A stretch of 64,000 nt of DNA from a virus (taxonomy: Duplodnaviria; Caudoviricetes), in IMG/VR virus record IMGVR_UViG_2684623194_000001, positions 3,803 to 67,802 of that record, one strand, 5' to 3'. The notes below the pieces were generated by a model. That model was not told the origin of the DNA and ran no database searches. It saw nothing but the letters and a program-made list of their open reading frames with translations. Below, in pieces: positions 19,329 to 58,844 of this stretch. The stretch's first letter is position 1; each line of letters opens with the position of its first letter. The translations under genes were made by a program, and so were the position numbers.

Positions 19329-19351
19329 AAAAAGGGGAGCCGAAGCTCCCC
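19329..19351 (-). terminator. Intrinsic terminator after the major capsid gene
   Basis: GGGGAGC-TTCG-GCTCCCC followed by TTTTT on the minus strand. Confidence 0.85.
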
Positions 19352-19359
19352 TCATGTCA

Positions 19360-20382
19360 TCAGTTGCTGGCGACGCGAACAGCGAGTTCGGGGCGGATCA
19401 CCTCATCGCCGTAAAGGATATCGAGGCGACATGGAAACGTGTCGTCCGAGATCGAGTAGGCGCGAACGATACGCATGGAGATGCCGTCGAGGACCTGCCG
19501 CGAGGCGAAGTCAACGCCCTTCGGCATGACCAGATCGGCCGTGACGAACGCGAAGGCGTCCTTGTCGAACGCGAGCGAGATGCCCGATGCCGTGCTCGCC
19601 GGACCGGCGAAGGTAACAGCCGCGTTGGCAGCGGGCGCCATCGAGACGTTCTGGCGAGGGCCGGTCGGAACGATCGCGGGCGAGATCGCCAGCGTGCCGG
19701 CGCCGCCCGCATAGTTCGTGGTGACGACGAACTGCTGGAGCAGACCAGTCGAGGTTTTGGTTTCCGGATGGACGCGAAACACGCCTGCGATGGTGAACAC
19801 GTCGCCCTGGTTTACGGCGCCCGTGCCATTGGAGACCACGAGCGAGTTGCCGGTCTGACCAGCGCCGTTGACCTGATAGGCCGCGCCGGCACCGCGCGTA
19901 TGCGCCGGCATGAAGGTGTTTTCCCAGAAGTCGAAGCCAGCGGCTCGACCCATCGAGCCGTCCTTGTACTGCTTCGAAATCTCCTTCTGGTCATTGAACA
20001 GGTTCTTGTTGTCGTTGACGATATCGACGTTGTCCTGCGTGTTCAGGAGCATGTTGAGATCGGGCGACGCGAGGCTATCCACGAGGATCTTGCGGGTGGC
20101 GAGCACCTTGGCGAACGTCGCCGGGGCGCCCTGATTGTTCACCTGCTGGTAGACCTTCTTGTACGACCGATTGATGAGGTCGCCTTCGATGTTGGCCGCG
20201 AGGACCGACATGGCGGGCTTCAGGATGCGGTCGGAGAAGTCGTCCAGCGAGAGCGTCAGCTCGGCCGACGTGAAGTTGAGATCGACGCCCTTCTGTGTGG
20301 CGACGGTCAGCGACACGTTGCTTTCGACGGTGTCCTGCGTGTTCAGGATGCGGCCGGTTCGCACAGTGTATTGATTGGGGAG
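19360..20382 (-). CDS. P22-type major capsid protein, exon 2 (340 codons, begins LPNQYTVRTGR)
   Basis: In frame with the 19360..20364 ORF; motifs QKGVDLNFTSAEL and CRLDILYG...RPELAVR. Confidence 0.9.
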   Translation of the reverse strand, partial: LPNQYTVRTGRILNTQDTVESNVSLTVATQKGVDLNFTSAELTLSLDDFSDRILKPAMSVLAANIEGDLINRSYKKVYQQVNNQGAPATFAKVLATRKILVDSLASPDLNMLLNTQDNVDIVNDNKNLFNDQKEISKQYKDGSMGRAAGFDFWENTFMPAHTRGAGAAYQVNGAGQTGNSLVVSNGTGAVNQGDVFTIAGVFRVHPETKTSTGLLQQFVVTTNYAGGAGTLAISPAIVPTGPRQNVSMAPAANAAVTFAGPASTASGISLAFDKDAFAFVTADLVMPKGVDFASRQVLDGISMRIVRAYSISDDTFPCRLDILYGDEVIRPELAVRVASN

Positions 20383-21230
20383 CCATATGTTCCAAAGGGC
20401 TCGCTAGTTCCCTTTGCGCCCTTCCGGGCAGCTTAACCTTTCGGCTAAGAGCAGGTCATCTCATGAACTGGCCGAAGCCAGTCCCGACGCGCTTCCCCCC
20501 GCTTGGGGGTACGGGCTTGCGCCCTGACCGTCACACGTTCTTTGAATGCGGGCAGATCCCATTGTTCCGCATCTTCCCAGTCTGGCAGTTCATGCACAAG
20601 ATCTGGAAACCTGCGGGAAAGCCCTGGCGCTTCAGCCATACATACATGCTGTAGCCGCCGTTGACCTTTGGGATCTCCTTGCGATGCAAATTCCCATCGT
20701 TATTGACGTGGTCAATTGACAGGAACAATGGTTCAGTTTCGCCGCAGCAATTGCAGACCGGGCCACCATAAGCAGCGTAGGTCTCGCCTTTCAAGGTGCT
20801 CATACGGAAGTCTTTCTTAGCCTTGATATCGGCCTTGTAGACCGCGATCTCGGCTTCTGACATCTTCGCGAAGCGCCGTTCGTCACTCTTTTTCTGATAG
20901 AGGCGATGCTTCTCGCGGAGTTCCGCAATTTGCTCTGGCGTTCCAGTGTCTCGGGTTTTCACCCAAGTGGTTGGAGGATTAGTCCTCGCCCGCCAGTCTT
21001 TAGTCTTTGCTGCATTGCAGGGCTTGCACAGCCAAGGCTTGCCCTGAACCATCATTTTGGCCGGGACCTTATCCCCGCACCGTTTGCACGCAATCAAAGC
21101 TTCGCTCGGTATTGCCATGTCATTCCCTGCGAGGTGATACCCTTAAAATCTATCGCAGAGAAGCTTACGGTGTCCACCGAATTCACGTCGTTCTTCACTG
21201 CCGTGTCGCCACGGCAGGCCGCCTAAATTA
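20383..21230 (-). ncRNA. Group I self-splicing intron (848 nt, IA-like with P7.1/P7.2) in the major capsid gene
   Basis: 5' exon ends in U with a U-G wobble in P1 (CCGU/GCGG) and the intron ends in G. P2 CUGCCGUG-GCGA-CACGGCAG; P3 CGACGUG/CGCGUCG; P4 UCGGU/ACCGA; P7 A-C-GGUCA/UGACC-U; P8 with UUCG loop; P9 with GAAA loop. Removal restores the reading frame. Confidence 0.92.
20531..21118 (-). CDS. Intron-encoded HNH homing endonuclease (zinc-binding)
   Basis: N-terminal CxxC...CxxC; C-terminal CNCCGE...LSIDHVNNDG...ILCMNC. Confidence 0.8.
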   Translation of the reverse strand: MAIPSEALIACKRCGDKVPAKMMVQGKPWLCKPCNAAKTKDWRARTNPPTTWVKTRDTGTPEQIAELREKHRLYQKKSDERRFAKMSEAEIAVYKADIKAKKDFRMSTLKGETYAAYGGPVCNCCGETEPLFLSIDHVNNDGNLHRKEIPKVNGGYSMYVWLKRQGFPAGFQILCMNCQTGKMRNNGICPHSKNV

Positions 21231-21383
21231 ACGGATCTTCAGCGTGTCGCCGATCTTCGCGCCGTCCTTGGCGAAGCTGTTGTCATAGGTCCGGTTGATG
21301 GCTCCGATGAAGTTCAGCCGCTGGTGGAGGATACGCAAAGCCTCGCGCGTGATCGCCGTCGAGGTCAGGAGAGTGTTTGCCAC
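21231..21383 (-). CDS. P22-type major capsid protein, exon 1 (51 codons, GTG start)
   Basis: Read manually: MANTLLTSTAITREALRILHQRLNFIGAINRTYDNSFAKDGAKIGDTLKIR; RBS AAGGA; followed directly by TAA at the intron start. Confidence 0.9.
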
Positions 21384-21437: not shown

Positions 21438-22433
21438 TTAGCGCCCGCGCTTGCGGACTTGTTCGTTGCGACGGCGCGCCCATTCGTCGGCAGACAGTCG
21501 ATCATCCAGACCTGTCGGCGCGGGCGAAGTGTTGCCTCGCGGGACAGTGGTGAGGGGAGCGACGGCTTCCTGCTGTCGTGCCTTTGCGGCGCGATCTGCT
21601 GCCTTTGCCATGGCCTTGTCGTAGCTCATGGCCTTGTGGAGCAGAATGAATGCTCGCGGGTCGCCGACTGCGTTCACGAGCTCGTCCTGGGAGTAGCCGC
21701 TCACGTTCATGGCGTAAGAGCTGACCTCCGTTGCGACCTCTTGGTTCCAGCCGGGTACTTTGCTCGTCAGGACCTTCATGGTTTCCTCGGCGCGCTTGGC
21801 GATCTCCGCTCGGGAAGACTGCTGCGCTTCGAGAGTGCGGCGCTGATGGTCCTGCTGTGCCTGCTGCTGCTTGTGATGGAGTTCGCCCGCCAGATTGTTG
21901 CGGGCCTTCTCCAACTGGTGATATTCCCGCCACGCGGCGTTCGCGGCGAACGGGTCCTGCTTCTCGTAGGCTGCCCAATCAACCTGCTCATACTGAGCGA
22001 GCTGATCGTTGAGGTTCACGAGGCGCGCGAAATCCTGAATGTTCGCGTGCTGCATCTCGGCTTGCTGGGTCATCATCTGACGCTGCTGTTCGACAGCGGC
22101 CTGATGGGTTTCCAGTTCCTTGCGTGCGGCGGCGACTTCCTGGGTCTTGCGCGTATAGTCGGCCTGCATCATCAGCTCGCCCTTGAGGGCGGCCGGGATG
22201 CGGTATTTCTTGCCGTTCCGTTCGATCTCTTCGAACTCGTCGGCGTTCTCATCACCCGGCTTAGGAGCCTCGGCTTCAAGGTCGAGGTCTAGCTCGGGCT
22301 CTCCTTCGTCACCTTCCGGCGCGAGATCGTCGTTCTGCTGCTCGGCAGTGTCACTTGCCGTGGCGTCAAAGCCATCATCCGGTGTGATATAGTCGAGCGA
22401 AGGTGCGGCTTCTGCGCCGTTGGTGTCGGACAT
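21438..22433 (-). CDS. Scaffolding protein
   Basis: Acidic N-terminus, MMQADYTRKTQEVA motif, coiled coil; lies between portal and coat. Confidence 0.85.
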   Translation of the reverse strand: MSDTNGAEAAPSLDYITPDDGFDATASDTAEQQNDDLAPEGDEGEPELDLDLEAEAPKPGDENADEFEEIERNGKKYRIPAALKGELMMQADYTRKTQEVAAARKELETHQAAVEQQRQMMTQQAEMQHANIQDFARLVNLNDQLAQYEQVDWAAYEKQDPFAANAAWREYHQLEKARNNLAGELHHKQQQAQQDHQRRTLEAQQSSRAEIAKRAEETMKVLTSKVPGWNQEVATEVSSYAMNVSGYSQDELVNAVGDPRAFILLHKAMSYDKAMAKAADRAAKARQQEAVAPLTTVPRGNTSPAPTGLDDRLSADEWARRRNEQVRKRGR

Positions 22434-22518
22434 GTGGTCGAACTCCTAGAAGGTTGGTTCGGTGTTTAGGGATGGACGCCTATTCGCTGGCGTCGTGCGA
22501 CAGGCCCTTGAGCCGTGT

Positions 22519-24765
22519 TCAGTAGCCGCGCATCCGGCGCGGGAGCGGGGGCAAAGAGCCGTCCATCGGCATCTGCACTGCCTCAGGCAGACGCAGTTCC
22601 TTGATGGCCTTCGCGGCATTCAGATCAGCGGCGGAGCGCTCTTTCTCCGCCGTCGCGTGAAGCTTGTCGGCCTCGGCCGCAGCGACGATGCCTTCCCAGT
22701 CTCCATTCGGGCCGGGCGCGTCGGTGACATTCGCGCCGCCGTCTGCCTGGATTTTGCCGAGAGCCGACAGACGCTTGGTGAAGGCCTCGTACTGCTTCAC
22801 GCTGACGTTCGCCATGTCGGCGGTGTTGTCGCCTTCCAGCTTGCCGATATAGGCCAGCATCTGCTGGATCATGGTCTTGGACTGCTCCAACTGAGCGCCC
22901 ATGGACTGGATCTGCTGCTGGGCTTCGGGAGGCAGCCCGCCATTGAGCGGAGCCGGAAGCATCGCCTTCAGCCGCTCGGCGATCTCTTCCGCACCCTGCC
23001 AGTCGAGGTTCTTGACGAGGAGATCGCCGGCCAGTGGGATAATCTGCGGAAACGCCCGCATCATCTCCGTCATCTGGACGGCGGTTTCCTCGCGCTTCGT
23101 CGTGTAGCTCGGGCCGGTCGTGACGGTGAGGTCGTACTTGCCCTGAGCGAGATCGAACGTCTTGATCTGCGGCGCCTGAGACTGTCCGGGCATTACCTGA
23201 CCCACACCCTGCATCGGCTCTCCGTTTGGCCCCTGCTCCATCACCTGAGGCATTCCCTGGCCCATTTGGACGGGCACGGGGCGCATCAAAGGCACGTTCG
23301 ACGGAACCCCGTCCTCGCCCATGACGCGAATGATCCGCTCGGAATTGTAGACCTTCGGAATGAGGTCGATCAGGATGCGGCCGGTGTGGCGGATTGCCCG
23401 GCTCATGTTGTCTTGAAAGTGGAAGGTCGAGGTGTCGCTCTCGCGCTGGCGAGCGAGGATCGCGCGACCGCTCGTCTCGTTGCCCTGAGAGCCCATGCCA
23501 GCGTCGAAGATGCCGATGGTGGCCTTGATGTCGTCTGAGGCGTTCATCGCCTCCTGAAGGGCTCCTGCTGCCGCTCCCGTGTCGAGAGGCTGGCGCTGGG
23601 GCGGGCCGCCCGCGGTGATGTCGAACTCAAGATACGGATGGTTCTCGCTGTTCGCGGTCGCCCAGCGCCGGCCATCCGACTTGAATGCGCCCTTAGGTCC
23701 GATCCACGGCGTCTTAGGCGCGAGGGCCACGAGTTCCGTCGCCTTCGACCGCCAGTAGTTGAACATGCGCTGCGGGTCTTTGGCGTCTCGGATAAGAGAC
23801 CGCAGATGCCGCTTGCGCTTGTCGTCAATCACCTCGTCGCCGTAGACGGGAATGATCGGAATGTACCGGCCCGGCCATTTGTCCGTCTTGATGACGCCGC
23901 CGCCGTTCAGGATGTGCCGGCTGACCTTGTGAGACCGCGTCTCGCGCTCGGCCTTAACGGTGATGCCCTCAAGCTCGAAGAGAAGGAGCTGAGGGACCAT
24001 GTAGCCGTTGAACTCGACTTCCTTCTCGGCCTCATCCTTGTCGATGATGACGCCGTTTGAAAGCTGGAGAACCTTACGGCGAACCTCCTCGCGGCGCCAC
24101 CATTTGGCAATCATCACTTTGCCGTCGCTGGCCCAATTCGCATTGTCTCCAGACCAGTTCGTCGGGTCCTCGTCGGGGTACTGGTCCTTGAACTCGTCTT
24201 CCGTCAGCCATTCCGTCTCGAAGGCGCTGTTCCAGTTCGCGCTATCGGCATCCATGCAGGACGGGTCGCCGTAGATGGAGAACGGGTCCGACACGCGCTC
24301 AATCGACAGGTCGAGGTCGAACGTGTCGTCATAAGCGTAGTCGAGATCGACCTTCAGATAGCCCCAGCCCATCGAGACGGCGCATTCGGTGGCCGTATCG
24401 TAGGCCACGTCAGCGTTCGAGGTGTACTCGATGTTGCGGATCAGGCCGTTGATGATGTGCGCCGTGGCGACATCGGCCTTGTCGTCGGCCGGGTGAACCT
24501 TGATCGACGGCTTGTTCTGCCGCGCGTCGTTGACGACCTGGCGAATGAATGCCGGGAGGCGGTTGATGGTCAGCATCGGACGCCCGTCCGTCTGATACTG
24601 TTTTGCGATCTGGTCGGGCCACTGCTCACCCAAACGCGAGAACCGAAGATCCTCGGCCGCAAGAGCGCGGTTGTCGGCTTCCGCCTCGTGAGCGGCTTCA
24701 AACGCTTCCTTGGCTTCCGCTAGCAGGTCGTGCTTTTCGCCTTTGGAGGTGGTGTCTTCGGCCAT
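22519..24765 (-). CDS. P22-like portal protein
   Basis: GEQWP, LTINRLP, DPQRMFNYW, NETSGRAILARQ and GPSYTTKREE motifs; start MAEDT coupled to the terminase stop. Confidence 0.92.
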   Translation of the reverse strand: MAEDTTSKGEKHDLLAEAKEAFEAAHEAEADNRALAAEDLRFSRLGEQWPDQIAKQYQTDGRPMLTINRLPAFIRQVVNDARQNKPSIKVHPADDKADVATAHIINGLIRNIEYTSNADVAYDTATECAVSMGWGYLKVDLDYAYDDTFDLDLSIERVSDPFSIYGDPSCMDADSANWNSAFETEWLTEDEFKDQYPDEDPTNWSGDNANWASDGKVMIAKWWRREEVRRKVLQLSNGVIIDKDEAEKEVEFNGYMVPQLLLFELEGITVKAERETRSHKVSRHILNGGGVIKTDKWPGRYIPIIPVYGDEVIDDKRKRHLRSLIRDAKDPQRMFNYWRSKATELVALAPKTPWIGPKGAFKSDGRRWATANSENHPYLEFDITAGGPPQRQPLDTGAAAGALQEAMNASDDIKATIGIFDAGMGSQGNETSGRAILARQRESDTSTFHFQDNMSRAIRHTGRILIDLIPKVYNSERIIRVMGEDGVPSNVPLMRPVPVQMGQGMPQVMEQGPNGEPMQGVGQVMPGQSQAPQIKTFDLAQGKYDLTVTTGPSYTTKREETAVQMTEMMRAFPQIIPLAGDLLVKNLDWQGAEEIAERLKAMLPAPLNGGLPPEAQQQIQSMGAQLEQSKTMIQQMLAYIGKLEGDNTADMANVSVKQYEAFTKRLSALGKIQADGGANVTDAPGPNGDWEGIVAAAEADKLHATAEKERSAADLNAAKAIKELRLPEAVQMPMDGSLPPLPRRMRGY

Positions 24766-26321
24766 CAGCCCATCCATGAGTGAGCAAACGAAGCGCGATG
24801 ATCCTTCACCGGCTCCGCCCACTTCTGTTCGACAGGCTGCGCGAAGGTGAGAACAACCGCGTCCCATTCGTCGGGGGAGCGAACCCCTCGGGCTCGCATA
24901 TGCTCTTTGCTCTCGATCAGAAGGCGCTGGTTCGTATCGTAGTGATACCCAGGCGCGCAGGCATCGGCTTGCAAGCTGTCGTCGTCAGGGATGTCCACGC
25001 CAGCCGGCTCTTCAAGCCAATCTCGTGAACGCTCCCACATTTCCGCCCGCCGGTTCTTTGGGCCGGGCCGCTTGGAGCCATCGGCCATGAACTTGATCGG
25101 CTCCTGCGGCTCGCCTGCGAAGTTGATGGCGATGCAGATTTCCGAATACGGTTCGCCGTAGCTCTTCAGGATGTCGTAGGTGCCGGCACCCAAGCCGCCC
25201 ACGTCGATGAAAACCGCGTCGGGCTTGTCGGCGTCGATCACCTGCTTGATCCAGTTCGCACCGGCCACGATGTCCAGCTTGGTCTTGCTCTCGCGCTTGA
25301 TGATCTTCCGACCGCGACGCCATGCCAACGAGAACCGATCATCGCCAAAACGAGCCGGGTCAGCGCCAATGACGAGAGGCCCGACCCCTTCGCATTCCAG
25401 CTTTCGAGCCCGCAGAATGGCCTCCGGCTTGATGAAGCTGTCGTGACCGGTCATCTGGAAAGCTTCGTCCGCAGTCGCCGGGTACTCCTGTTTGAACAGC
25501 AGCGGGTCTTTCAGTTCCGCCATCTTGTTCCGCCGCCATGCCATCTGTTCGAGGTCGAGGCCGTGTGCGTACCTATAGGCTTCGTCCTCATCGGTCAGAA
25601 TGAAGCCCTCTGGTACGGCACGGCGATATTCCGGTTGCCAGAACCACGGCATGAAAACCGGGATGTAGTCTCCGATTGCCTGCTCGGCCTGCTGCCAGCG
25701 AGCGTGAAACTCGCCGCCAACGCCGTTCGCCGTGCTCTCTAGAATGATCTCCGTCCCGGGCAGATCAGGGATGGCCTGAACGACACCGGCGAAGTGAGTC
25801 TGCGCATTAGGCCAGAAGGCGACTTCCGACCCGTGGAAGAGCTGCACCGTCTGAGAACGGCCTACCGCCTTTGCGCCTGCCGTGCCGACCGCGTAGCCGC
25901 TTCCCAGCCGGTCGAAGTAGAGTTCCTTCGCGTTCGACGCCGAGGTGGAGGGCTTCACCAGATCGGGGCAGTGCTGGTGATAGCGATCCACCATGCCGAA
26001 GAGGTTGTTGGTCGCGTCCTGCTCGTGCGTGAGGATGAAGCACCTCTGGCCGCGCGAATGCGTCACCCGATGATAGAAGCGACCGCCAACATAGGTAGAG
26101 ACGCCTTGCTGCCGTCCCTTAAGGACGAGAGCGCGAACCTTGCCCGTCTCCGCCCTCTGCTGCTCTAGGCGCTCGTGGAGATATGTCTGCGCCCGGTTGA
26201 GAGTGAGCGGCACGATAGCGCCGGATTTCGATCGAATACGAAGGCACTTGCCGGCATAGTGGAGGAAATCGTCTCGAAGGCGAACCCGGATGGCCCGCTC
26301 TCGATCGCTCATCGTGCTCAT
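24765..26321 (-). CDS. terL: Terminase large subunit
   Basis: LKGRQQGVST Walker A, HGSEVAFW, ILESTANG, nuclease motifs GADPARFGDD and SPDEWDA. Confidence 0.93.
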   Translation of the reverse strand: MSTMSDRERAIRVRLRDDFLHYAGKCLRIRSKSGAIVPLTLNRAQTYLHERLEQQRAETGKVRALVLKGRQQGVSTYVGGRFYHRVTHSRGQRCFILTHEQDATNNLFGMVDRYHQHCPDLVKPSTSASNAKELYFDRLGSGYAVGTAGAKAVGRSQTVQLFHGSEVAFWPNAQTHFAGVVQAIPDLPGTEIILESTANGVGGEFHARWQQAEQAIGDYIPVFMPWFWQPEYRRAVPEGFILTDEDEAYRYAHGLDLEQMAWRRNKMAELKDPLLFKQEYPATADEAFQMTGHDSFIKPEAILRARKLECEGVGPLVIGADPARFGDDRFSLAWRRGRKIIKRESKTKLDIVAGANWIKQVIDADKPDAVFIDVGGLGAGTYDILKSYGEPYSEICIAINFAGEPQEPIKFMADGSKRPGPKNRRAEMWERSRDWLEEPAGVDIPDDDSLQADACAPGYHYDTNQRLLIESKEHMRARGVRSPDEWDAVVLTFAQPVEQKWAEPVKDHRASFAHSWMG

Positions 26322-30505: not shown

Positions 30506-30582
<77 letters not shown>

Positions 30583-45012: not shown

Positions 45013-45446
45013 TGGGACAGCAAATCACGCCTACCGCTGGGATTGGGCCGGATGTTCCCGTTCGCCTCTCTGATGCCTGCCGCCTCTTCCTAGGCGGCAT
45101 GATCACTCCAGCCAGCCTCAGAACCGAAGCCCGCAAGGGTAATCTTGAAATGCTGCGAATCGCGGGCAAGGACTTCGTCACCCGTTCCGCATTGGAGGCT
45201 ATGAACCAGAAATGCCGCGTCCAAAGTCACCCCCAAGGCTCCAGCGTCGCGCCGACCGCCCGACCGATGCGGAGCGCGCAGCCGGCATCGTCCGCTACAA
45301 CTGGGTCATCCGAGACGGAGACAAGTACGTCCGCACAGGATGCGCTGAGGCTGACCGCTCAGAGGCTGAGAGAAAGCTCGCGGAATACCTCGGCGAGAAG
45401 CACGACCCGGTCCACAGAAACAGCGCAAGTGCTGAGCTTGAGATAG
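45009..45446 (+). CDS. xis: Putative excisionase, overlapping the integrase 5' end
   Basis: Winged-HTH-like SLRTEARKGNL..RIAGKDFVT; directly precedes int. Confidence 0.65.
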   Translation: MMGQQITPTAGIGPDVPVRLSDACRLFLGGMITPASLRTEARKGNLEMLRIAGKDFVTRSALEAMNQKCRVQSHPQGSSVAPTARPMRSAQPASSATTGSSETETSTSAQDALRLTAQRLRESSRNTSARSTTRSTETAQVLSLR

Positions 45447-46309
45447 CGGACATCCTCAACGTCTACGGCCGGGAGAAAGGACCCGACACGGCTCGCCCGG
45501 CTGAAACGGCATCCGCCCTACTCCGCCTTGATGCCTTCTGGGGGAAGATGAAGGCCTCCGACATTCTCGGCCCGACCTGTCGGGCGTACACCGAACACAG
45601 AGGGCGGCCTGCTGCAGCAAGACGCGATCTGGAAGTCCTGAGAGCCGCCGTAAAGCATTACAAGCGGGAGTACGGCATGGAGGCCGAGCCGGTCTTCACC
45701 TTGCCTCCCAAATCAATCCCGCGAGAGCGCTGGCTGACCCGGGACGAAGTCGCAAAACTGGTCTGGGTCTGCTATAGATCGAAGGGAAACGACAAGCGCC
45801 TTCACCTCGTTCGGTTCATCCTCATCGCCGTTTATACAGGCACTCGGCATGATGCGATCCTTCGGCTTCAGTGGATGCCGAATACGACTGGGGGATGGGC
45901 GGATCTGCAGAGCGCCCGCCTCTATCGACGCCCAGCCCTAACCCGCGAGACGAAGAAGAGAACGCCGACCATCCGCATTCCCGACCGTCTGCTGGCTCAC
46001 ATGCGGCGCTGGAAGAAACAGGACCAAGGAATCCTCAATGTGATCCACTACCAAGGTCGGGCAATTGGCCGGTTGGAGAAGTCGTTTCGAAGTGCCCGGG
46101 AGGATGCTGGGCTAGGAGAGGACGTGATCCCTCACGCTCTTCGGCATACAGCTATCACCTGGCTCATGCAGGCGGGCGTGAACATCAACGAGGTGTCGGG
46201 TTTCACAGGGGTGACGACTGAGGAGCTGCAGCGGACCTACTGGCATCATTCGCCAGACTTTCACTCCAGCATCGCCACGGCTCGAATGTCACGAAAACCG
46301 CGTATCTGA
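45212..46309 (+). CDS. int: Tyrosine integrase of the prophage
   Basis: YTGTR, HALRHT and a C-terminal YWHH segment; next to tRNA-Pro. Confidence 0.93.
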   Translation: MPRPKSPPRLQRRADRPTDAERAAGIVRYNWVIRDGDKYVRTGCAEADRSEAERKLAEYLGEKHDPVHRNSASAELEIADILNVYGREKGPDTARPAETASALLRLDAFWGKMKASDILGPTCRAYTEHRGRPAAARRDLEVLRAAVKHYKREYGMEAEPVFTLPPKSIPRERWLTRDEVAKLVWVCYRSKGNDKRLHLVRFILIAVYTGTRHDAILRLQWMPNTTGGWADLQSARLYRRPALTRETKKRTPTIRIPDRLLAHMRRWKKQDQGILNVIHYQGRAIGRLEKSFRSAREDAGLGEDVIPHALRHTAITWLMQAGVNINEVSGFTGVTTEELQRTYWHHSPDFHSSIATARMSRKPRI

Positions 46310-46326
46310 GCGAATATCTGAGCGAA
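46305..46326 (+). repeat. Direct repeat TCTGAGCGAA x2; candidate integrase arm-type sites
   Basis: tctgagcgaa-ta-tctgagcgaa between int and the tRNA. Confidence 0.5.
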
Positions 46327-46372
46327 TTTTTGGAGGAAGAGGAAGTCGGTATGCCTAAGGCCTTGAGAGTGT

Positions 46373-46449
46373 TGGTCGGAGTGGCAGGATTTGAACCTGC
46401 GACCCCCTCGTCCCGAACGAGGTGCGCTACCAGGCTGCGCTACACTCCG
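46373..46449 (-). tRNA. tRNA-Pro(CGG); integration target of the prophage
   Basis: 77-nt cloverleaf with CCA; anticodon loop TTCGGGA. Confidence 0.97.
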
Positions 46450-46622: not shown

Positions 46623-46697
46623 TGGGGCGTAGCCAAGCGGTAAGGCAGCGGTTTTTGGTACCGCCATCCCCTGGTTCGAATCCAGGCGCCCCAGCCA
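46623..46697 (+). tRNA. tRNA-Gln(TTG)
   Basis: 75-nt cloverleaf with CCA; anticodon loop TTTTGGT. Confidence 0.96.
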
Positions 46698-47225: not shown

Positions 47226-47651
47226 TCACCTGACGTGGTCCAAGCCCTCTATGAGTTCGTCAAGCGTGTAGCTGGCGAGTTCATTTAGCTCTTCATTAGA
47301 GAGGGAAGCCGCGACCTTAACCTCAGTATCGATAGTCAAATTCCGCTCAGGGCGCCGCGCACTGGCGAGAACGCTCGCGAGCGACAGGGCGGCAGCGGCC
47401 GGGACTATCTGAGGCGACGGCATCATGCTGGCGAGCGTTGTGCGGCGGGCCTCGCGCTCTGCATGATGCATGTCGTCTAGGTCGCGCTGCACACTCTCCG
47501 GCCATAGGTCGAGATACTGGCCGAACCAGACTTTCACGTCCGACACATCGAGGGCCGAACGCTCGTTGATGACGCGCGCGAGCGTTACGAACGCTTGTGC
47601 GATGGTGTTGATTTCCTGATCTGGAAGATACTTCGACGGCTCGGAATACAA
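47226..47651 (-). CDS. Hypothetical protein overlapping the 3' end of the Rep-like ORF
   Basis: 141 aa protein-like composition; GGAG upstream of a TTG start. Confidence 0.55.
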   Translation of the reverse strand: MYSEPSKYLPDQEINTIAQAFVTLARVINERSALDVSDVKVWFGQYLDLWPESVQRDLDDMHHAEREARRTTLASMMPSPQIVPAAAALSLASVLASARRPERNLTIDTEVKVAASLSNEELNELASYTLDELIEGLDHVR

Positions 47652-49149
47652 GTTCGAACGCTCCGGGGATGGTTGCCGGAGTGTTATGCTTTATTCGAAA
47701 AGGCTCTGCAATAGTTAAACCCGCCGAAGTCGAAATATTATCTTCTGGTTCAATCAACGCTGACTTATCTTCTACTGCAAGCTCAGCCTTTACCTTCTCT
47801 ACTTTGCGCCACTCTTCGAAAAATGCCTTCGCGCCATCCCGTAGCGCTCGCGTCCCTGTAATGAGACGGCCGGGGACGACCGACCTTGTGTGAGAAAGCG
47901 TCTTCTGCCCGTAGCTGCGAAGCCAGAAGTCGTCAGGGCGTCGGAAGCGTGAGAAGTCAACTTGGCGTTCACCGCGTCGTTTCGGCGTCCAGTCTTTACC
48001 GCCGGCAGCAACGAGGGCTTCGGCAACAATGGGCGCCTCTTTGCGCTTGAAGACGAGTTCGCCGTGAACGTGAGGCCGGTCAACCTTGCTGGTCTTCGCT
48101 TCCACCACGAAAACGAAATCGCGAGGCTCGCCGGGAAGACGCTTTCGGAGTTCAAGGGCGATGCGCGCGGCGACGTAGCAGGCGAACTTGCCGGAGTTGA
48201 TGGCTTTCGCGCGGATGCGGTCGGAGAACTCAAGAGAGAAGGCGTAAACCTCGCGCTCGGGATCGGCGACGAGCGCGCGATGATAGGCCAGGGCAACCCC
48301 GCGTTCGTCCAGGTCTCGCCAGCGGGGAAGAGAGCGCCGGGTGATCGCAACGAGCGAGTTCGGCGAGGCGTAGGTCTGGCCGTGTGTGAACGTGAGTGCC
48401 GGCGTCGGAAGGTCTACGTCTGCCAGTAGGTCGTTAGGCGGATCGGCCGGGAGTGGTGCGGGTGTGGAAGCGGAAGCGGACGCCTTCGTTGCGTTCACCG
48501 CTGCGAGGATGTTGCGAACCGACGAGGGTGACCGGGCGGGTGTCAGCGTGTGAGCCGGCGATGCTGGCGCTTCGATGACTGGTGAGGCGAGAGCGGCGTC
48601 TAGCTCTTCGAGGTCGAGGGTGTAGGGGTCAGGGGAGTAAGTACCCTTTAATACAGCCGGGGTGCTCGTCGCGGCATCAGCCGACATGTCGGAAGCGCCC
48701 GCAATACCCTGTGCGACAACGGTTCCGCATGAGGTCCACGCATCAGAATGAGCGATGCCAGAATTAATCGATTTGCCAACTTCGGCCGCGAACTCATCGA
48801 ACGCGGGATCGGCTGTGATCGCGTCCAGTTCATCGAAGAGTTCCGCTAACTCGTCGCGCGTAGGCTCGTCATCGCTTCTCTTTTCGTCGCCGAGAAGCTG
48901 GCGTCGGAGAAGATCGGCGATTTGTTGCGGACTTAATGCGGGAGTGGTCGGCGACGGGTCTTCGTCGTTTTCGTCAGCGGGAGCTACTAGGGCGTCCAAA
49001 TCAGACAACGCGGCCTCAAGGGCGGCATTCTGCAAATCATCTAGCTCAAGATCGTGTTCCGTGTCGGATGCTGCGATCCGAACGATACGAAAGCGGCTTT
49101 CAGTAGACGAAAGGGAAAACACAGGAGACTCGCGAATGGTGGTAGACAA
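47347..49149 (-). CDS. Putative HUH-type replication protein with long acidic N-terminus
   Basis: FVFVVE...RPHVHGEL (HUH) and SYGQK (YxxK); start codon uncertain. Confidence 0.55.
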   Translation of the reverse strand: MSTTIRESPVFSLSSTESRFRIVRIAASDTEHDLELDDLQNAALEAALSDLDALVAPADENDEDPSPTTPALSPQQIADLLRRQLLGDEKRSDDEPTRDELAELFDELDAITADPAFDEFAAEVGKSINSGIAHSDAWTSCGTVVAQGIAGASDMSADAATSTPAVLKGTYSPDPYTLDLEELDAALASPVIEAPASPAHTLTPARSPSSVRNILAAVNATKASASASTPAPLPADPPNDLLADVDLPTPALTFTHGQTYASPNSLVAITRRSLPRWRDLDERGVALAYHRALVADPEREVYAFSLEFSDRIRAKAINSGKFACYVAARIALELRKRLPGEPRDFVFVVEAKTSKVDRPHVHGELVFKRKEAPIVAEALVAAGGKDWTPKRRGERQVDFSRFRRPDDFWLRSYGQKTLSHTRSVVPGRLITGTRALRDGAKAFFEEWRKVEKVKAELAVEDKSALIEPEDNISTSAGLTIAEPFRIKHNTPATIPGAFELVFRAVEVSSRSGNQHHRTSVRNARARHQRAFGPRCVGRESLVRPVSRPMAGECAARPRRHASCRARGPPHNARQHDAVASDSPGRCRPVARERSRQCAAP

Positions 49150-49182
49150 AAGAAAACCGGCGCGACCTTTCAGCCGCGCCGG
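49146..49182 (-). terminator. Terminator-like hairpin abutting the Rep-like ORF start
   Basis: CCGGCGCG-gctgaaaggt-CGCGCCGG followed by TTTTCTTTT on the minus strand. Confidence 0.6.
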
Positions 49183-49349
49183 GCACCATTCGTAGGAGTT
49201 GCGCCATGCCGTAGCGCTTTTCAGAACGACTATAGAATCTCACATCTCACGCTTGAGGCACAAGCTTTGCTTTGTTGTCGTTTGCATTTTGTTTGCAGCG
49301 GAGCGCACACAGGGCAAGTGAAACCGCAACGTAAGTGCAACGGCTCGAT

Positions 49350-51836
49350 TCATCTTCCGCCCCGCATGAGACCGCCCGGCCGCATCGCTGTTCGAAGCTC
49401 TTGGGCAACCGTTGCCCGAATTTGAGCGTCTACGGCTTGGGCGATGGCCTTTCCCTGCTTCTCGTCAGCTTCGCGGCCCTGCGATCCGCCCTCGACGTTC
49501 ACCGTGATTGCCGGCGCTAGGGTGATGTTGGACGTCGAAGAGCCACCCATGTTGCCGATGCGGGGCATGGGTGGTGCTGACAACGTGACGGGAATCGATC
49601 GCCCGTCAGGGAGCGGAACGGCTGCTTCCGGCCCAGCTTCGCCGAAGATCGCAGCGCTACGCGAAACACCTCCCTTAGCGAACTGAGGCAGCGGTTGCGG
49701 GCGCCCGTTCGCAGCAATGCCGCCGTCTGCAAAGCCGAAGAGCTTCCCCAGGATGCCGGCGCCCTGCCCGCCGCCGAAAAGGCCAGCCATCGGCCCCTTC
49801 CCAAAAAGTGCGGCTTCGATCGCCGCTTCTGCCAACATAGAAAGCATCCGCTGCAACGCCTCTTCGGCCGTGGCGCTTCCGGTGATGATGGACGAGAAGA
49901 ACCCGGAGACGCCGCTTGCAAGGAAGTCTTGCGCGGCCTTGAGTTCTTCCTGCTTGTGCGCGGCCTTTTCAGCGGCGTTCTCGACTTCCGCCATGCCGGC
50001 CGCAAGCTGGCTTAGCTGCGCGCGCTGTTCGGGCGAAAGCGCGATGCCGCGCGCACTGGCCTGGTTCAATAGGTCTTGTTCGATCCGAAGGCGGCTCGCA
50101 GCGCTGGCCGTCATGCCATAGGTCTGAATCTCGACATTGCTGTTCGCGATCATCTCGACGGCGCCGTTGATGATCTCCCGGTAGCTCGTCGCGAGTTCCT
50201 TGTTCTTGTCGATCTTCGTTTGAACGCCTTCGTCGCGCCCCGGCAAGGTCTGCGTCGTGGCGCCCATGGCCGTGCTGATCGCGCCATCGGGAACGCGGCG
50301 AAGTCCCTCCCATTCATTGCGCAAGCCGCCGAGGTCGTTCCCACGGCGCCGGAGAAGCTGTTGCGCCATGCGGTCCTGCATTCCAGCGTCGAAGAACTCT
50401 TCGCCGGTTAGTCCCATGTCGCCCATGAGGCCGCGCATGGTCTTCGAAACGATCTGGTAGCGCCCGACGGCTGACGAGTTGAACTTGTTATCAGGGTGCG
50501 CCAGCATCTTCTTTTGAAGCGCCAGAACCTCGTTCAATGTCATCTGAGTGAGGTTCACGTCGCCGCCCGTGAACTTCCCGAAAGCCAGGGTCTCGTTATA
50601 GCCCCTGCCCTTGTCGGTGCCTTCGGCGTACCCGATGAGGTCGAGCATCCCTTTCTTAGCAATAGTGCGGGCTTCCGCATCGTTGAAACGGCTAAGCGCG
50701 GCCATGCTCGCGGTCTCGGCTTGGCGCGCGGAAGTCGCGGGCGGGGTGATGCCACCAAGCTTATTCGCTGCGGCATCAGCCGCGGTGCCAAGCCGGTTGA
50801 TCCCGTTCGCTGCGGTGTCGCCACGCGCGGCGAGCGCCTTGTCGATACGCTCGATTTCAGCGTTCGACGCTTCGACCTGTTTACGGAGCGGCGTTAGAAG
50901 CATTTCAGGCAGATAGCTTCCATCGATCCGCCGTTGGGCGTCGTCGCGAGACCTTACCGCGAGCGAACGCGAAGCGAGAAGCGTCTGAGACTGCTGGTCC
51001 TGATATTCCTTGAATCGGTCGAGAAAGATGCCGAGGGCGTCGGTCGCCTCGATAATTGCGCCCTTGACCCCTGTCCCGATGCGCTTGGACAATAGGTCGA
51101 ACTTTCGATCAACCTCGTCGGCCTTATCGATGAAAGCGTCGTCCATAACGAGGCCGAAAGAATTCGCTTCGGCGATCATGGTTCGAATGCCGGTCGCACC
51201 GTGGCGCAGGAGCTCGACAAACTGCTCGCCGCCCGTTCCACCGAAAAGCTCGTCAGCAACCCGGATTTGAGCCGCCTTGTTAAGTTTCTGCATTCGGGAG
51301 ACGATCTCAACGAGAAGCGCCGAAGGGTCTTTCAGCGCCTCTTTGAGGGTCGTAGCGTCATAGCCGATGCGTCGGAAGGCTTCTGCGGCTGAGCCAGCAC
51401 CTGTTACGGCGAACTCGTCGGCGCGAAGGGAAAGCTCCTTCATGCCGTCAACGAGCGCGTCCATAGGAATGCGCGTTTGTGTGGCGACGTGCTGAAGTTC
51501 CTGAAACGCTTTAGTCGAGAGGCCGGCGCGACGAGCCTCATTGCCGATGTTGGCAATGCTCGTCACAACTTCTCGGTACTGAGAGACAAGCTGACCAACG
51601 CCGCCGATAGCCAAGGCGCCGGCAAGCCCCTTCCCGATCGTGCTGAGCGATTGGTTGATGCGAGAGGCCGAAGACGACATGCGATCTTCCATAGCCTTCG
51701 CAGAGCGGTCGGCCGACCGCTGCATGTTCTGGAACTGGCGAGCGACGAGCTTGTCCGCCCGGTCCATCTGCTTTTGCAGACGATCCATCTTCGCTTCGAT
51801 TTGAACGGATAGGTCGAACTCGGGCGCGCGCGCCAT
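49350..51836 (-). CDS. Tape measure protein with internal lambda-type lysozyme domain
   Basis: Helical N-terminus; LIGYAEGT...GYN...SSAVGRYQIV...QD..A...EWEGL; FADGG/GEAGPEA and RPGG C-terminus. Confidence 0.85.
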   Translation of the reverse strand: MARAPEFDLSVQIEAKMDRLQKQMDRADKLVARQFQNMQRSADRSAKAMEDRMSSSASRINQSLSTIGKGLAGALAIGGVGQLVSQYREVVTSIANIGNEARRAGLSTKAFQELQHVATQTRIPMDALVDGMKELSLRADEFAVTGAGSAAEAFRRIGYDATTLKEALKDPSALLVEIVSRMQKLNKAAQIRVADELFGGTGGEQFVELLRHGATGIRTMIAEANSFGLVMDDAFIDKADEVDRKFDLLSKRIGTGVKGAIIEATDALGIFLDRFKEYQDQQSQTLLASRSLAVRSRDDAQRRIDGSYLPEMLLTPLRKQVEASNAEIERIDKALAARGDTAANGINRLGTAADAAANKLGGITPPATSARQAETASMAALSRFNDAEARTIAKKGMLDLIGYAEGTDKGRGYNETLAFGKFTGGDVNLTQMTLNEVLALQKKMLAHPDNKFNSSAVGRYQIVSKTMRGLMGDMGLTGEEFFDAGMQDRMAQQLLRRRGNDLGGLRNEWEGLRRVPDGAISTAMGATTQTLPGRDEGVQTKIDKNKELATSYREIINGAVEMIANSNVEIQTYGMTASAASRLRIEQDLLNQASARGIALSPEQRAQLSQLAAGMAEVENAAEKAAHKQEELKAAQDFLASGVSGFFSSIITGSATAEEALQRMLSMLAEAAIEAALFGKGPMAGLFGGGQGAGILGKLFGFADGGIAANGRPQPLPQFAKGGVSRSAAIFGEAGPEAAVPLPDGRSIPVTLSAPPMPRIGNMGGSSTSNITLAPAITVNVEGGSQGREADEKQGKAIAQAVDAQIRATVAQELRTAMRPGGLMRGGR

Positions 51837-51849
51837 TCGTCAGGATTCC

Positions 51850-53466
51850 TTATGCAAATTCGGCCGCCGCGTCATAGTCGGGATCGGCCATAGGATTGGG
51901 TTTGGGTCGGTTGAACGCGGCACGGGAGACGGCCATCCACGCGGCGGAGGCACCATCGATGCGGGTACGCGACTTGCTCTTGTGCATCGTGCGAAGGCCG
52001 GAAGGTCCCTCATAGATGGAGACGTTCTCGACGTTCCATCGAAGGATTGGGTGGCCACCATGCCGAAGCTTCAGGCCAACAATTGCGCGTTCCAGAACGG
52101 CAACGCCTGCGGCTTGCGTCCTGTTATCAAGCGGCAATGCGTGTGCTGCGATCCCAAGCCCCTGCAAGCCAAGTGCGATCGGAGTGGCATACGCCCGGTC
52201 ATAAACGATGTCGGTCACATAGAACCGATCGTGCAGACGGGCGATGTGTTCGACCACGTAGCTATAATCGATCGCGCCGCCAGGGGTCGGAGTGATGTAG
52301 CCGGCTTCGGCCCAGGCAACATACGGCACGCGGTCAACGTCGCTTTTCTTCGGAAGCTCATCCTCCGGACAGAAGAAATGAGGAAGAACGATGAAGCCAT
52401 CCGGGTCTTCGGGATCGCGCCACGCCGCGACGACGGCCGTAAGATCGGTGGAAACGGATGCGTCAACGGCGATGTAGCAATCTTCGTCGCGAAGGCGCTC
52501 GAAAACGTCTTCGCCGAGCGGCGCGGCACCCTTGTCATAGGTTGCCGTGTCCACGAACGGCGAAAGGCTTTGGTCCTGCCAGATATTGAGGTTGAGTTGC
52601 TGAAAAGAAGTTCGCTCGCTCGGGCGGTTCGCGATCTCGCGGGCGTACTGACGCAGGCCGGCAAGATCGGGATACCCACATGCGAGGCCGGGATTCACCC
52701 GGTGCCAAATCGCTTCGTCAGTCCAGTCGCAGTCCTTGGGCGCCTCGAAGAGGATTGGTAGGGTCGCGGGGTCATCTATCTCGCCGCGCGCAACGGCACG
52801 GGCGTATTGGTATTGCTCCCACGCAATTGAGTTCTGCCCGCGCCCTGCGGTCGTGGTGATGACGTTGAGCGAGCCCGGCGTCTTGATAAGGCCGGTCTTG
52901 AGAGCTTCCCAGAGGTCGCGCTTCGGCCACGCATGAATTTCATCCATGAGCGTGAACGTCGGCGTTCTGCCGTGTTGGGTCTTCGCGTCGGCGCTAATAG
53001 CCTCAACGATCGAACCGGATCGAAGATCGCGGAAGCGGTTCCGATAGTCGGCAATGTCGGTGATGGCGCCAAGGCGACGATCGGCGCGGATCATTTCGAC
53101 AGCTTCCTCAAACGCAATGCGCGCCTGTTTCTGATCTGCCGCCGCGCAAACGATCTGTCCGCGCGCCGTCTTCTCCGGGCCGATGGAATGGAGGAGCGTC
53201 AGCGCCGCGCCGAGCGTCGTCTTCCGGTTGCCGCGCGGGATCATCGCGAAAACGGTTTTCACGATACGCGTCTTGTCAGGATGGCGCGGCCCATAGATGC
53301 GGCGGACGATTCGCTCCACCCAAGGGTCAAGCTGGAAGCGTCGGCCCGGTTGGGCCGATTTGGGGTGTCGAAGTTCACGGAGGAAGCGGACGGCGCGCTC
53401 CCCATATCCAAACGGATCGGGGATCGGCGAACCGTCATCAATCCAAGAAGGATAGGTCGTCGTCAT
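51850..53466 (-). CDS. terL: Terminase large subunit (HK97-type)
   Basis: IPRGNRKTT, LMDEIH, ITTAG, NP.L, VDAS..DLTA, RIDG. Confidence 0.93.
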   Translation of the reverse strand: MTTTYPSWIDDGSPIPDPFGYGERAVRFLRELRHPKSAQPGRRFQLDPWVERIVRRIYGPRHPDKTRIVKTVFAMIPRGNRKTTLGAALTLLHSIGPEKTARGQIVCAAADQKQARIAFEEAVEMIRADRRLGAITDIADYRNRFRDLRSGSIVEAISADAKTQHGRTPTFTLMDEIHAWPKRDLWEALKTGLIKTPGSLNVITTTAGRGQNSIAWEQYQYARAVARGEIDDPATLPILFEAPKDCDWTDEAIWHRVNPGLACGYPDLAGLRQYAREIANRPSERTSFQQLNLNIWQDQSLSPFVDTATYDKGAAPLGEDVFERLRDEDCYIAVDASVSTDLTAVVAAWRDPEDPDGFIVLPHFFCPEDELPKKSDVDRVPYVAWAEAGYITPTPGGAIDYSYVVEHIARLHDRFYVTDIVYDRAYATPIALGLQGLGIAAHALPLDNRTQAAGVAVLERAIVGLKLRHGGHPILRWNVENVSIYEGPSGLRTMHKSKSRTRIDGASAAWMAVSRAAFNRPKPNPMADPDYDAAAEFA

Positions 53467-53839
53467 TCGCTACCTTGAAATTGGATCGCGCGCGAGAAAC
53501 GGGCGTCAGGCCGAGTTCTGCGCAAAGCTGTTTGTGACGGATCGCGGCTTCGTTCTTGATCCCGGTCGCCGGATTCCGCTTAAGTTCGCCGCGCGCATTC
53601 GGGATCGTCGCGCCTTCCGTTTCAATCTTCCGCGCCATGGCGACCATGGTTCCGAAGGCATCGCAGCAATTCGCCAGAATGGAGAGGTCCGCGTCTTCGA
53701 GGTGGCCGCGTTCAACAAGGATCGGCGCGACCCGCTTCCACTCGCGTTTCGCATCCGCTGACAGCCAGGCCGGAGGGCGCGGGACGGTGCCGATCGGTGA
53801 CGAGCCGGCCGCGATCTCATTTGGCTTGCGGCCCCTCAC
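53438..53839 (-). CDS. terS: Terminase small subunit (P27 family)
   Basis: RGRKP, PPAWLS..AK.EW, NPA, ELGLTPVSR. Confidence 0.9.
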   Translation of the reverse strand: MRGRKPNEIAAGSSPIGTVPRPPAWLSADAKREWKRVAPILVERGHLEDADLSILANCCDAFGTMVAMARKIETEGATIPNARGELKRNPATGIKNEAAIRHKQLCAELGLTPVSRARSNFKVANDDDLSFLD

Positions 53840-54156
53840 GCGCGAACCTCGCATGTGATCTCGACGCCGCGCCGGTCTTCGGTCGGAGCGAACGAGACGA
53901 TCGCAAACGTCTGGCCGGCTAGGGTCACACGGTCGGACAACGAAAGGCCAGGAAGGCGACGAGCGCGCAGGACGATGTTGGACGCATCAATCTCGCGCTC
54001 GTCTTCGTTCTCGCGCTGGTGACGTTCCTCGACAATCTCAGCCCGGACGGAAGCGAGCGGCGCCCATGTCTCGATCATAGCGCCGTAGCGGTCAGCGGTT
54101 TGATTGGCGCGTTCGATCGTAATCCGATGCACGAGCTTCGAAGCTATGAGGCTCAT
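53836..54156 (-). CDS. Head closure protein
   Basis: LVHRITIE...D.YG....W....VRA. Confidence 0.8.
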   Translation of the reverse strand: MSLIASKLVHRITIERANQTADRYGAMIETWAPLASVRAEIVEERHQRENEDEREIDASNIVLRARRLPGLSLSDRVTLAGQTFAIVSFAPTEDRRGVEITCEVRA

Positions 54157-54617
54157 TGGCGCCACCGTGCGATAGCCTCGACGCTGACGACGGCGTGGCC
54201 GTGCTGGCTAGAAGAATCGCGAAGGATGCGAGTGCCCTGATAACGAACGTCCGCAAAGCTGATTTCCGGTGATGTGAGAGGGGAAGCGAAGAGCGCAGAG
54301 CGGACGATTCCAGCGAGCTTGGAAGCCTCGACGGATGCCTCTTCCCGCGTCCAAATGTGAAGGTCGAGCGCGATCGTCGCATGACGACGCGCTAAGGTTA
54401 GGTCGTTCGCGATCGTCTGCGGAGTGCCGAACGTGATCGAAGGAAACATGTTCGGATGACGCGGGCCATCCACGATCGCCATAGGAGCGAAGATCGCGCC
54501 CATGATCGGAGACGAGAGAAGGCGTTCACGGATAGCGGCTTGGAGTGCGAGCGCGGGGTCGGCGGGAAGCACGGCATAGGCCGCTTCGATAGCCTCGCGA
54601 GGTGTAATCGCGGTCAT
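54153..54617 (-). CDS. DUF3168 tail terminator/completion protein
   Basis: ALQAAI..RL, PSITFG, LHIWTR, HAVV. Confidence 0.8.
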   Translation of the reverse strand: MTAITPREAIEAAYAVLPADPALALQAAIRERLLSSPIMGAIFAPMAIVDGPRHPNMFPSITFGTPQTIANDLTLARRHATIALDLHIWTREEASVEASKLAGIVRSALFASPLTSPEISFADVRYQGTRILRDSSSQHGHAVVSVEAIARWRQ

Positions 54618-55269: not shown

Positions 55270-55284
55270 TTCGAAAAAATCCCA

Positions 55285-55362: not shown

Positions 55363-55367
55363 GACTG

Positions 55368-57167: not shown

Positions 57168-57170
57168 TCG

Positions 57171-57668: not shown

Positions 57669-57681
57669 GATCGTGCGCCCC

Positions 57682-58833: not shown

Positions 58834-58844
58834 TTGGTCTGTCC

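Follow-up and report, generated by a model that had tools for sequence, protein, structure and literature searches.

A P22-family coat gene of a prophage is very likely split by a group I intron with an HNH-type reading frame

In the minus strand of a stretch of 64,000 nucleotides (nt) from the IMG/VR virus record IMGVR_UViG_2684623194_000001 (positions 3,803 to 67,802; this whole stretch is called the window and all coordinates refer to it) the coat (major capsid) gene of a prophage is interrupted by an insert of 848 nt. Gene callers can be expected to present this locus as a truncated coat gene with a stray HNH gene and to score the prophage as defective; with the intron recognised, the head module of the prophage is complete. 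Our analysis makes it highly probable that a true group I intron is involved. It would belong to subgroup IA, the type with P7.1 and P7.2 that is widespread in phages, and lies between codons 51 and 52 of a P22-family coat gene.

Direct reading together with the list of open reading frames (ORFs) identified a minus-strand frame of 51 codons at 21383-21231, which starts with GTG and ends with ...AAG ATC CGT. A TAA codon at 21230-21228 follows immediately. The coat frame resumes at 20382 (CTC CCC AAT) and comprises 340 codons up to the stop codon at 19362-19360, so that both exons add up to a coat protein of 391 amino acids (aa). Exon 1 corresponds to positions 1-47 and exon 2 to positions 58-383 of the PHROG profile phrog_283 (major head protein), and Pfam PF11651 (P22_CoatProtein) matches exon 2; with phrog_283 covering both exons the protein belongs to the P22 coat family. 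A search with exon 2 revealed 7983 homologs at E <= 0.001 among 8000 scored, and the 120 homologs listed are mostly 391-393 aa long. In an alignment of 11 homologs with both exon translations the end of exon 1 and the start of exon 2 occupy adjacent columns, with no residue gained or lost. The exons contain no frameshift or stop in comparison with the uninterrupted homolog P0001, and the uninterrupted homologs are contiguous across ...KIGDTLKIR/LPNQY... (the slash marks the junction). An exact in-frame split of a 391-aa coat by an 848-nt insert had been claimed by an original prediction made from the sequence alone; the ORF reading and the homolog alignment bear it out, and the comparison with intron-less coats, which the prediction had proposed as a check, showed contiguity over IR/LP in the homologs aligned as well as, over a stretch of 14 residues, in 80/80 further coat loci from viral contigs. 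The DNA of the insertion site is conserved, with the majority base present in >=60% of these 80 alleles at most of the 42 flanking positions, and no target-site duplication is visible at either junction of the insert. Just past the coat stop codon a pattern match indicates a terminator-like hairpin followed by a T run (19332..19353, minus strand).

A further check that had been proposed, a public group I covariance model applied to the insert, was negative for the window copy: RF00028 of Rfam stayed without a match at E <= 10, whether the 1.3-kb region, the 3' part by itself or the whole genome was scanned, and direct Rfam scans returned only chance-level matches to unrelated families. The group I assignment therefore needed models built from relatives. 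Using the protein encoded by the intron ORF as query, we were led to four viral contigs (L001-L004) with the same insert at the same coat codon. Their coats are 63-70% identical to the window coat in protein and the non-coding intron parts 82-86% identical in DNA; for L001-L003 the whole intron shows 78% DNA identity and the ORF 78% identity in protein. In the alignment with these contigs the hairpins are preserved by two-sided changes. A scan with a 17-letter motif led to the viral contig L053, whose coat gene (30% identical in protein) contains two inserts. The second of these has no ORF, is located at the same coat codon as the window intron and matches RF00028 over the full model with 37.1 bits and E 1.5e-7 (curated threshold 50 bits); its Rfam alignment became the key for naming the helices of the window intron. 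The same 17-mer scan also returned L052, a chance match. A 15-mer from J8/7-P7' (J, joining segment; P, paired helix) found mostly chance matches in viral contigs, and all matches of a 19-mer from J3/4-P4, seven in metagenomes and one in a genome, were due to chance.

The wider family was collected with a pattern consisting of P7, the GCAA loop of P7.1, GUA, the AAGC loop of P7.2 and GAAG, in which the stems were left free. It was found in at least 119 viral contigs. We fetched 80 of them, which yielded 66 distinct sequences, a few of these being chance matches or L001-type contigs, and 20/80 loci were picked for diversity and scored with RF00028. A match at E <= 0.01 covering the pattern was obtained in 19 of the 20, with at least 50 bits in 16 and a best score of 103 bits. 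Below the threshold were L107 (40.7 bits), L099 (31.8 bits) and L104 (27.2 bits), and L132 gave no RF00028 match. In L099, L104 and L132, as in the window intron, an ORF directly precedes P7; these ORF-bearing relatives, too, score low or not at all. The family includes one annotated Intron_gpI in a T4-like coliphage, and for its member L114 blastn finds matching sequences in 843 phage records; blastn of the whole window intron against 50,697 phage records gave no match.

Two models were then built which leave out the window copy and the L001-type contigs. Model R1 comprises 62 family sequences, restricted to the region that follows the selection pattern on its 3' side; model and pattern share 4 bases (the rows L060, L062, L070, L082, L102 and L129 were dropped). 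Model R2 comprises 39 ORF-less 5' halves chosen from 46 sequences with a J3/4 anchor; L063, L064, L067, L079, L104, L119 and L132 as well as the sequences without the anchor were dropped. In the 64-kb window R1 has a single match at 20381-20495(-) with 62.8 bits and E 2.2e-12, which is also its single match in the whole 5.2-Mb genome. R2 likewise has one match in the window, at 21085-21233(-), with 49.2 bits and E 9.4e-9. On the basis of descent and structure we regard it as practically certain that the insert is a real group I intron.

The anatomy of the intron is compiled in Table 1. It follows a U (21231), and its last base is a G (20383). The arrangement of P1 and P10 is aligned by Rfam in the same way in the ORF-less intron of L053 at the same coat site. 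Codon 51 (Arg) reads CGT in 3/3 intron-bearing alleles at this site (window copy, L001 and L053), and an exon 1 ending with CGT supplies the U that P1 requires in front of the splice site; among the intron-less coat alleles (L181-L260) codon 51 is CGC in 54/80 and CGT in 20/80. The model contains 80 pairs in 14 helices, and none of them is non-standard. Unconstrained folds of both halves recover the helices (z = -2.62 each, with 0/200 shuffles folding as well), and the unconstrained minimum-energy fold reproduces P4, P5 and P5a. The order of the helices, with the P4-P5-P6 and P3-P7-P8 stacks and the joining segments, was confirmed by the alignments to R1 and R2, and the Rfam structure line on the relatives agrees. 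The original prediction had named P2, P3, P4, P7, P7.1, P7.2, P8 and P9, all of which are present with standard pairs; the U-G wobble in P1 behind a U and the terminal G held up in reading and fold, and P5, P5a, P6, P9.1 and P9.2 can be added. An alternative idea, that P5 and part of P4/P6 were lost and that UCGGUG-GA-CACCG forms a closed hairpin, was rejected by the R2 alignment and the free fold, both of which place P5', J5/4, P4' and P6 within the first codons of the ORF. An assignment of the pairing 41-47/740-746 to a helix other than P3 was also rejected; its place in the series with P7, P7.1, P7.2 and P8 identifies it as P3.

Table 1. Features of the interrupted coat gene, its predicted intron and the surrounding prophage. 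Numbers in brackets in the position column are intron positions n, which correspond to window position 21231 - n.
Feature	Position	Strand	Description
Coat (major capsid) exon 1	21231..21383	-	51 codons; phrog_283 E 8.6e-6; 98% identical to P0001 N-terminus
Coat exon 2	19360..20382	-	340 codons + stop; PF11651 E 9e-31; phrog_283 E 2.2e-65; 96% identical to P0001
Group I intron (predicted)	20383..21230	-	848 nt; begins UAA, ends with terminal G at 20383; models R1, R2; standard pairs
Intron ORF	20531..21118	-	195 aa, intact; CxxC...CxxC zinc-ribbon-like N-terminal part, C-terminal HNH-type nuclease domain
P1	21219..21234	-	exon CCGU (21234-21231) with guide GCGG (21222-21219, G9-G12); U.G wobble at splice site
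P10, possible, 2 bp	AG 21224-21223 with first two exon-2 bases	-	pairing
P2	21198..21217 (14-33)	-	8-bp hairpin, GCGA loop
P3	21184..21190 (41-47) with 20491-20485 (740-746)	-	5' strand CGACGUG; pairing
J3/4	between P3 and P4	-	AAU
P4	21180-21175 (51-56) with 21111-21106 (120-125)	-	R2 alignment
J4/5 and J5/4	P4-P5 region 21106..21180	-	GACA and CAA
P5	21170-21167 (61-64) with 21118-21115 (113-116)	-	contains ORF AUG
P5a hairpin	21160-21125 (71-106)	-	3' strand holds AGGGA upstream of AUG
P6	21103..21105 (126-128) with 20537-20535 (694-696)	-	GCG with CGU; ORF body in P6 loop
J6/7	between P6 3' strand and P7	-	GUGA; contains ORF stop
P7	20530-20525 (701-706) with 20458-20452 (773-779)	-	one bulged U
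P7.1	20524-20513 (707-718)	-	GCAA loop
P7.2	20509-20496 (722-735)	-	AAGC loop
P8	20484-20465 (747-766)	-	UUCG loop
J8/7	catalytic centre 20452..20537	-	AUGAGA
P9	20449-20432 (782-799)	-	GAAA loop
P9.1	20429-20418 (802-813)	-	GGAA loop
P9.2	20415-20394 (816-837)	-	loop with family UAGCGA
3' tail	up to terminal G 20383	-	GGAACAUAUGG
Scaffold	21438-22433	-	PHROG (phrog_3927, phrog_156 and phrog_2 match head module 21438..26321)
Portal	22519-24867	-	PHROG
Large terminase	24765-26321	-	PHROG
Prophage end: integrase 45212-46306 (+) beside tRNA-Pro 46373-46449 (-)	45212..46449	.	phrog_1 E 2e-32; ARAGORN

Covariation was measured for the 3' half by aligning 65 such halves with MAFFT and supplying the structure by hand. 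In these sequences 90.5% of the cells pair compared with 67.6% in shuffles (0/500 shuffles reach the observed value), and the covariation score is 0.606 compared with 0.185 in shuffles (again 0/500) and 0.06-0.15 with the partners slid. Two-sided changes were found in 31/34 pairs. The paired cells amount to 99.7% for P7, 99.6% for P7.1 and 100% for P7.2, with two-sided changes in 3/5, 4/4 and 5/5 pairs, and P9 is paired in 98.9% with two-sided changes in 6/7 pairs. The values of 75% for P8 and 73% for P9.2 are partly caused by slips of the alignment register, including the window row in P8. For P3, P5a and P6 the support comes from a small number of compensatory changes noted by visual inspection of L001, L053 and L005. 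P3 of L053 intron 1 has two pairs changed on both sides (A-U to G-C and C-G to U-A), the P5a stem shows compensatory changes in L001, and P6 reads GCC with GGU at the same places in L053 intron 1 and in L005. P6 of the window copy has an alternative 3' partner, a nearer CGU at 21093-21091 close to the ORF start; we prefer the distal partner because L005, L068, L099, L104 and L132 keep the 3' strand of P6 beside J6/7-P7. In P2 of L001 two pairs are changed on both sides and the loop is GUGA. P7.1 and P7.2 are described as class-defining features (PMC3984707). In the window intron both lie between P7 and the 3' strand of P3, with two-sided changes in 9/9 pairs, which places it in subgroup IA. 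R1, R2, covariation and standard pairing thus support the group I architecture with P7.1/P7.2 that had been predicted. The finer subgroup is presumably IA2.

The same prediction had described an HNH ORF within the intron. The ORF is indeed inside the intron, intact and probably HNH-type, but it is not a simple loop insertion, as it overlaps P5', J5/4, P4', P6 and J6/7: it begins with an AUG in the 3' strand of P5, runs through J5/4, P4', the 5' strand of P6 and the P6 loop, and terminates with a UGA in J6/7. The likely ribosome-binding purines upstream of the AUG lie in the P5a stem. PHROG matches of the protein include phrog_2255 'HNH endonuclease' (E 5.9e-11), phrog_1035 'endonuclease VII' (E 1.4e-7) and phrog_4234 (E 9.2e-6). 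Ten residues (C122, C125, D136, H137, N139, N140, C175, N177, C178 and H191) are invariant in 15 homologs. With moderate confidence, these profiles and motifs indicate an HNH-type product. An Atlas look-up gave automatic names only, such as 'putative HNH endonuclease'. A near-repeat flanks the body of the ORF (CGUGCAA at 21093-21087 and CGUGUGA at 20537-20531), and a similar pair is present in L005; this near-repeat of the P6 3' strand and J6/7 is possibly a trace of the entry of the ORF into the intron.

From established group I chemistry the following course can be expected. After late transcription a ribosome would halt at the UAA directly 3' of exon 1, and the halt would leave the intron free to fold. 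The guide GCGG would pair with the exon sequence CCGU, and a free guanosine in P7 would attack after U21231. The 3'-OH of exon 1 would subsequently attack after G20383 and join ...AAGAUCCGU to CUCCCCAAU..., which would yield the 391-aa coat; the ligated exons should read ...AAGATCCGT/CTCCCCAAT... at the junction. Group I introns of bacteria and phages are known in which a stop codon in frame follows the first exon and in which the ORF extends into the core (PMC3984707). Synthesis of the coat would depend on splicing of its transcript. Since the AUG is part of P5 and the likely ribosome-binding purines are part of P5a, an RNA whose nuclease is being translated should not be able to fold as a ribozyme, and vice versa. 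The stop after exon 1, the nuclease AUG in P5 and the nuclease stop in J6/7 make the locus a compact case for the relation between translation and ribozyme folding. The ORF product would probably act as a homing nuclease, which is expected to cut intron-less coat alleles near the stretch coding for GDTLKIR/LPNQY, and repair would copy the intron in.

Several observations weigh against an intact, self-splicing intron with an HNH nuclease. Besides the negative result with RF00028, the E-values of R1 and R2 are rough, as the calibration was shortened, and the family was collected with a pattern partly derived from the window intron; with an overlap of 4 bases for R1 and none for R2 this circularity is small but not zero. 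P6 consists of 3 bp only, with a second possible 3' partner, and P10 of 2 bp only. Since the ORF overlaps P5', P4' and P6, translating ribosomes could disturb the folding. A search for RNA runs that contain the sequence returned none. In run X1, whose kind is a guess, three pieces of contig (36, 157 and 324 bases) were present, but no piece bridges a junction; one ends at the first intron base plus two more letters and is uninformative. In the sister copy L004 (2383-2519) a deletion of 11 nt removes the 3' strand of P4, which the window intron has retained, together with the first ORF codons, and its R2 score is 21.1 bits compared with 52.6 bits for L001. The deletion reflects either a decaying copy or an assembly error; read as decay, it means that copies of this intron lineage do degenerate. 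Concerning the nuclease, Pfam HNH (PF01844) gave no match to the ORF protein and matched 2/15 homologs (best E 0.0012), and sequence searches of NCBIfam with the protein and of PDB with the protein and a 15-member profile gave nothing usable. The predicted fold, with a mean pLDDT (predicted local distance difference test) of 82.4, has weak matches within the range of noise: Gme HNH with Z 3.7 and a root-mean-square deviation of 4.0 over 68 residues, and Cap5, IscB, Cas9 and ZRANB3 with Z 3.3-3.6. The best Foldseek match of the protein has E 0.28, and a wide structural search gave no Z above 4.2.

Some of these points would also be explained if the insert were a group I intron by descent that no longer splices efficiently, so that the coat is effectively broken and the prophage defective. 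The missing Rfam match to the window copy, the core deletion in the sister copy L004 and the short P6 and P10 would fit such a decay, and since the prophage is absent from 40 related genomes, purifying selection in the lineage cannot be judged. All core helices, however, are intact with standard pairs, the ORF is intact as well, and identity of the exons to an uninterrupted allele reaches 96-98%. Moreover, long open frames were seen in the other genes of the prophage that were inspected, and the same design is kept in L001-L003 despite a diverged coat. We therefore consider loss of efficient splicing improbable, and the intron very probably still splices. It is far less probable that the insert is a free-standing HNH cassette or another mobile element which landed in the coat gene. 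Free-standing HNH genes are common in phages (PMC3706429), and among 22 viral loci for the HNH protein only L001-L004 match the 5' and 3' non-coding parts (blastn E <= 1e-3; the other 18 were untested for introns). A cassette would not account for the end-to-end match of the group I family models to the non-coding sequence that flanks the ORF on either side (260 nt), nor for ends that fall to the base on a coat codon boundary with no visible target-site duplication. For removal as an intein, as a group II intron or by translational bypassing we found nothing in favour and regard it as almost negligible. A stop codon comes directly after exon 1, and the insert is not in frame as one protein; a reverse transcriptase is missing, since the families matched by the single long ORF are limited to HNH and endonuclease VII, and no group II family is among the Rfam matches listed at E <= 10. 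Bypassing in T4 gene 60 spans about 50 nt, and 848 nt far exceed this known length.

An intron in the capsid gene of a temperate phage is an already known kind of element (PMC3706429, PMC3984707). In LittleE, a temperate mycobacteriophage of Cluster J, splicing of an intron in the major capsid gene was shown by reverse transcription PCR and N-terminal protein sequencing; its type is given by the authors as 'unclear, most likely group I', and they also cite a capsid-gene intron of the lactococcal phage Tuc2009 (Pope et al. 2013, PMC3706429). The original prediction had set the locus apart from phage group I introns found mostly in virulent phages and in DNA-metabolism genes. This contrast is weaker than stated, because the capsid-gene introns of LittleE and Tuc2009 had already been published (PMC3706429). 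By description, not by sequence, the LittleE intron resembles the one in the window: it lies in the capsid gene of a temperate phage, follows a U, ends with a G, contains a homing-endonuclease gene and must be spliced efficiently for the formation of virions. The two differ in host phylum and capsid family, and the endonuclease gene of LittleE is LAGLIDADG-like and located on the opposite strand, whereas the window intron has a sense-strand HNH-type ORF and a fully resolved group I structure. In the literature searched, two papers contain 'P22-like' together with 'group I intron', in both cases outside title and abstract, so that introns in this host gene family may not have been reported before. 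What the locus contributes is a fully resolved group I intron in which each helix has been assigned, and its host gene is the late gene that a temperate phage with a P22-type coat expresses most strongly.

The annotated intron of the T4-like coliphage belongs to the same RNA family, with 83.7 bits for R1 and 66.7 bits for R2 compared with 62.8 and 49.2 bits in the window. Both introns have P7.1 and P7.2 between P7 and P3' as well as three hairpins in the P9 region; the T4 td intron is the textbook member (subgroup IA2). In the window, in contrast, the host gene codes for a coat and not for a protein of DNA metabolism, and the phage is integrated rather than virulent. The P7 of the window intron reads GGUCA/UGACC instead of the GACUA/UAGUC usual for the family.

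Indirect signs point to mobility of the intron. The insertion site (...R/[L/I]P...) is identical in L001-L004, which have the HNH ORF, and in the ORF-less second intron of L053. In L001-L004 the same intron occupies this site in diverged coats; the GC content of the window intron (0.52-0.56) is lower than that of its flanks (0.60-0.66), and exon 1 ends with CGT in the three intron-bearing alleles. On the minus strand of L053 intron 1 (1567-837), which contains an HNH ORF, is separated from the ORF-less intron 2 (780-509) by an exon of 56 nt (836-781) encoding ...DPQFALPGDKIGYTFNAR, and both halves of both introns are matched by R1 and R2. The window intron shares its two ends with the same-site intron 2 of L053: 28/40 positions are identical from P1 to P2 and 45/68 from P9 to the 3' end, compared with 11 and 19 for the other L053 intron. 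Its P3-P4 segment, the core from P7 to P3' and the nuclease resemble the ORF-bearing L053 intron, which is located at another site. This mosaic suggests, from few sequences, an exchange of core and nuclease between introns.

Among the loci fetched, introns of the same family were found in P22-type coats near residues 9, 19, 25, 29-31, 46, 51 and 368 of the 391-aa protein, in the contigs L086, L099, L132, L005, L101, L114, L107, L103, L096 and L120. The P22-type coat gene thus looks like a recurrent target of introns, with about seven positions in this set. Multiple RF00028 matches occur in single 3-kb loci (four in L126, two each in L101, L079 and L107); judged by these matches, introns lie crowded together in some phage genes from the environment. 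The phage Twort reportedly has a single gene with several introns. One might speculate, although we consider it rather unlikely as a whole, that P22-family coat genes are a hot spot colonised at many codons by one phage intron family, that HNH cores are exchanged between neighbouring introns and that the prophage nuclease could cut the coat gene of incoming intron-less relatives. If true, the intron would be a weapon of interference rather than a pure parasite. In the jumbo phage PhiPA3 an intron-encoded endonuclease interferes with a co-infecting phage (PMC11620839); as there, an intron-borne homing endonuclease in an essential gene could act against intron-less relatives, a parallel that we take as a lead only.

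The window corresponds to 2.72-2.79 Mb of a 5.2-Mb genome. By its gene content the host element is an integrated temperate phage, in agreement with the predicted prophage setting: an integrase lies beside a tRNA-Pro, and genes for replication, recombination, packaging, head and tail are present. The genes for scaffold, portal and large terminase form a head module upstream of the coat gene in the same prophage. Further genes encode an Erf-type annealing protein, an exonuclease, a methyltransferase, a replication initiator and a thymidylate synthase, in addition to tail-fibre-like and other structural proteins. The intron-bearing prophage had no real match in the 40 related genomes. Promoter-like matches inside the intron reach only 9/12 consensus positions and were not used. 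The prophage also contains a tRNA-Met (30506-30582), with the packaging module on one side and the replication module on the other. Just past a tRNA-Gln (46623-46697) follows a second phage-like cluster (47350-64000) with genes for tape measure, large and small terminase, head-tail connectors, major tail protein, an HK97-type major head protein, protease and portal and with an integrase at 62213-64000; its gene order looks unusual.

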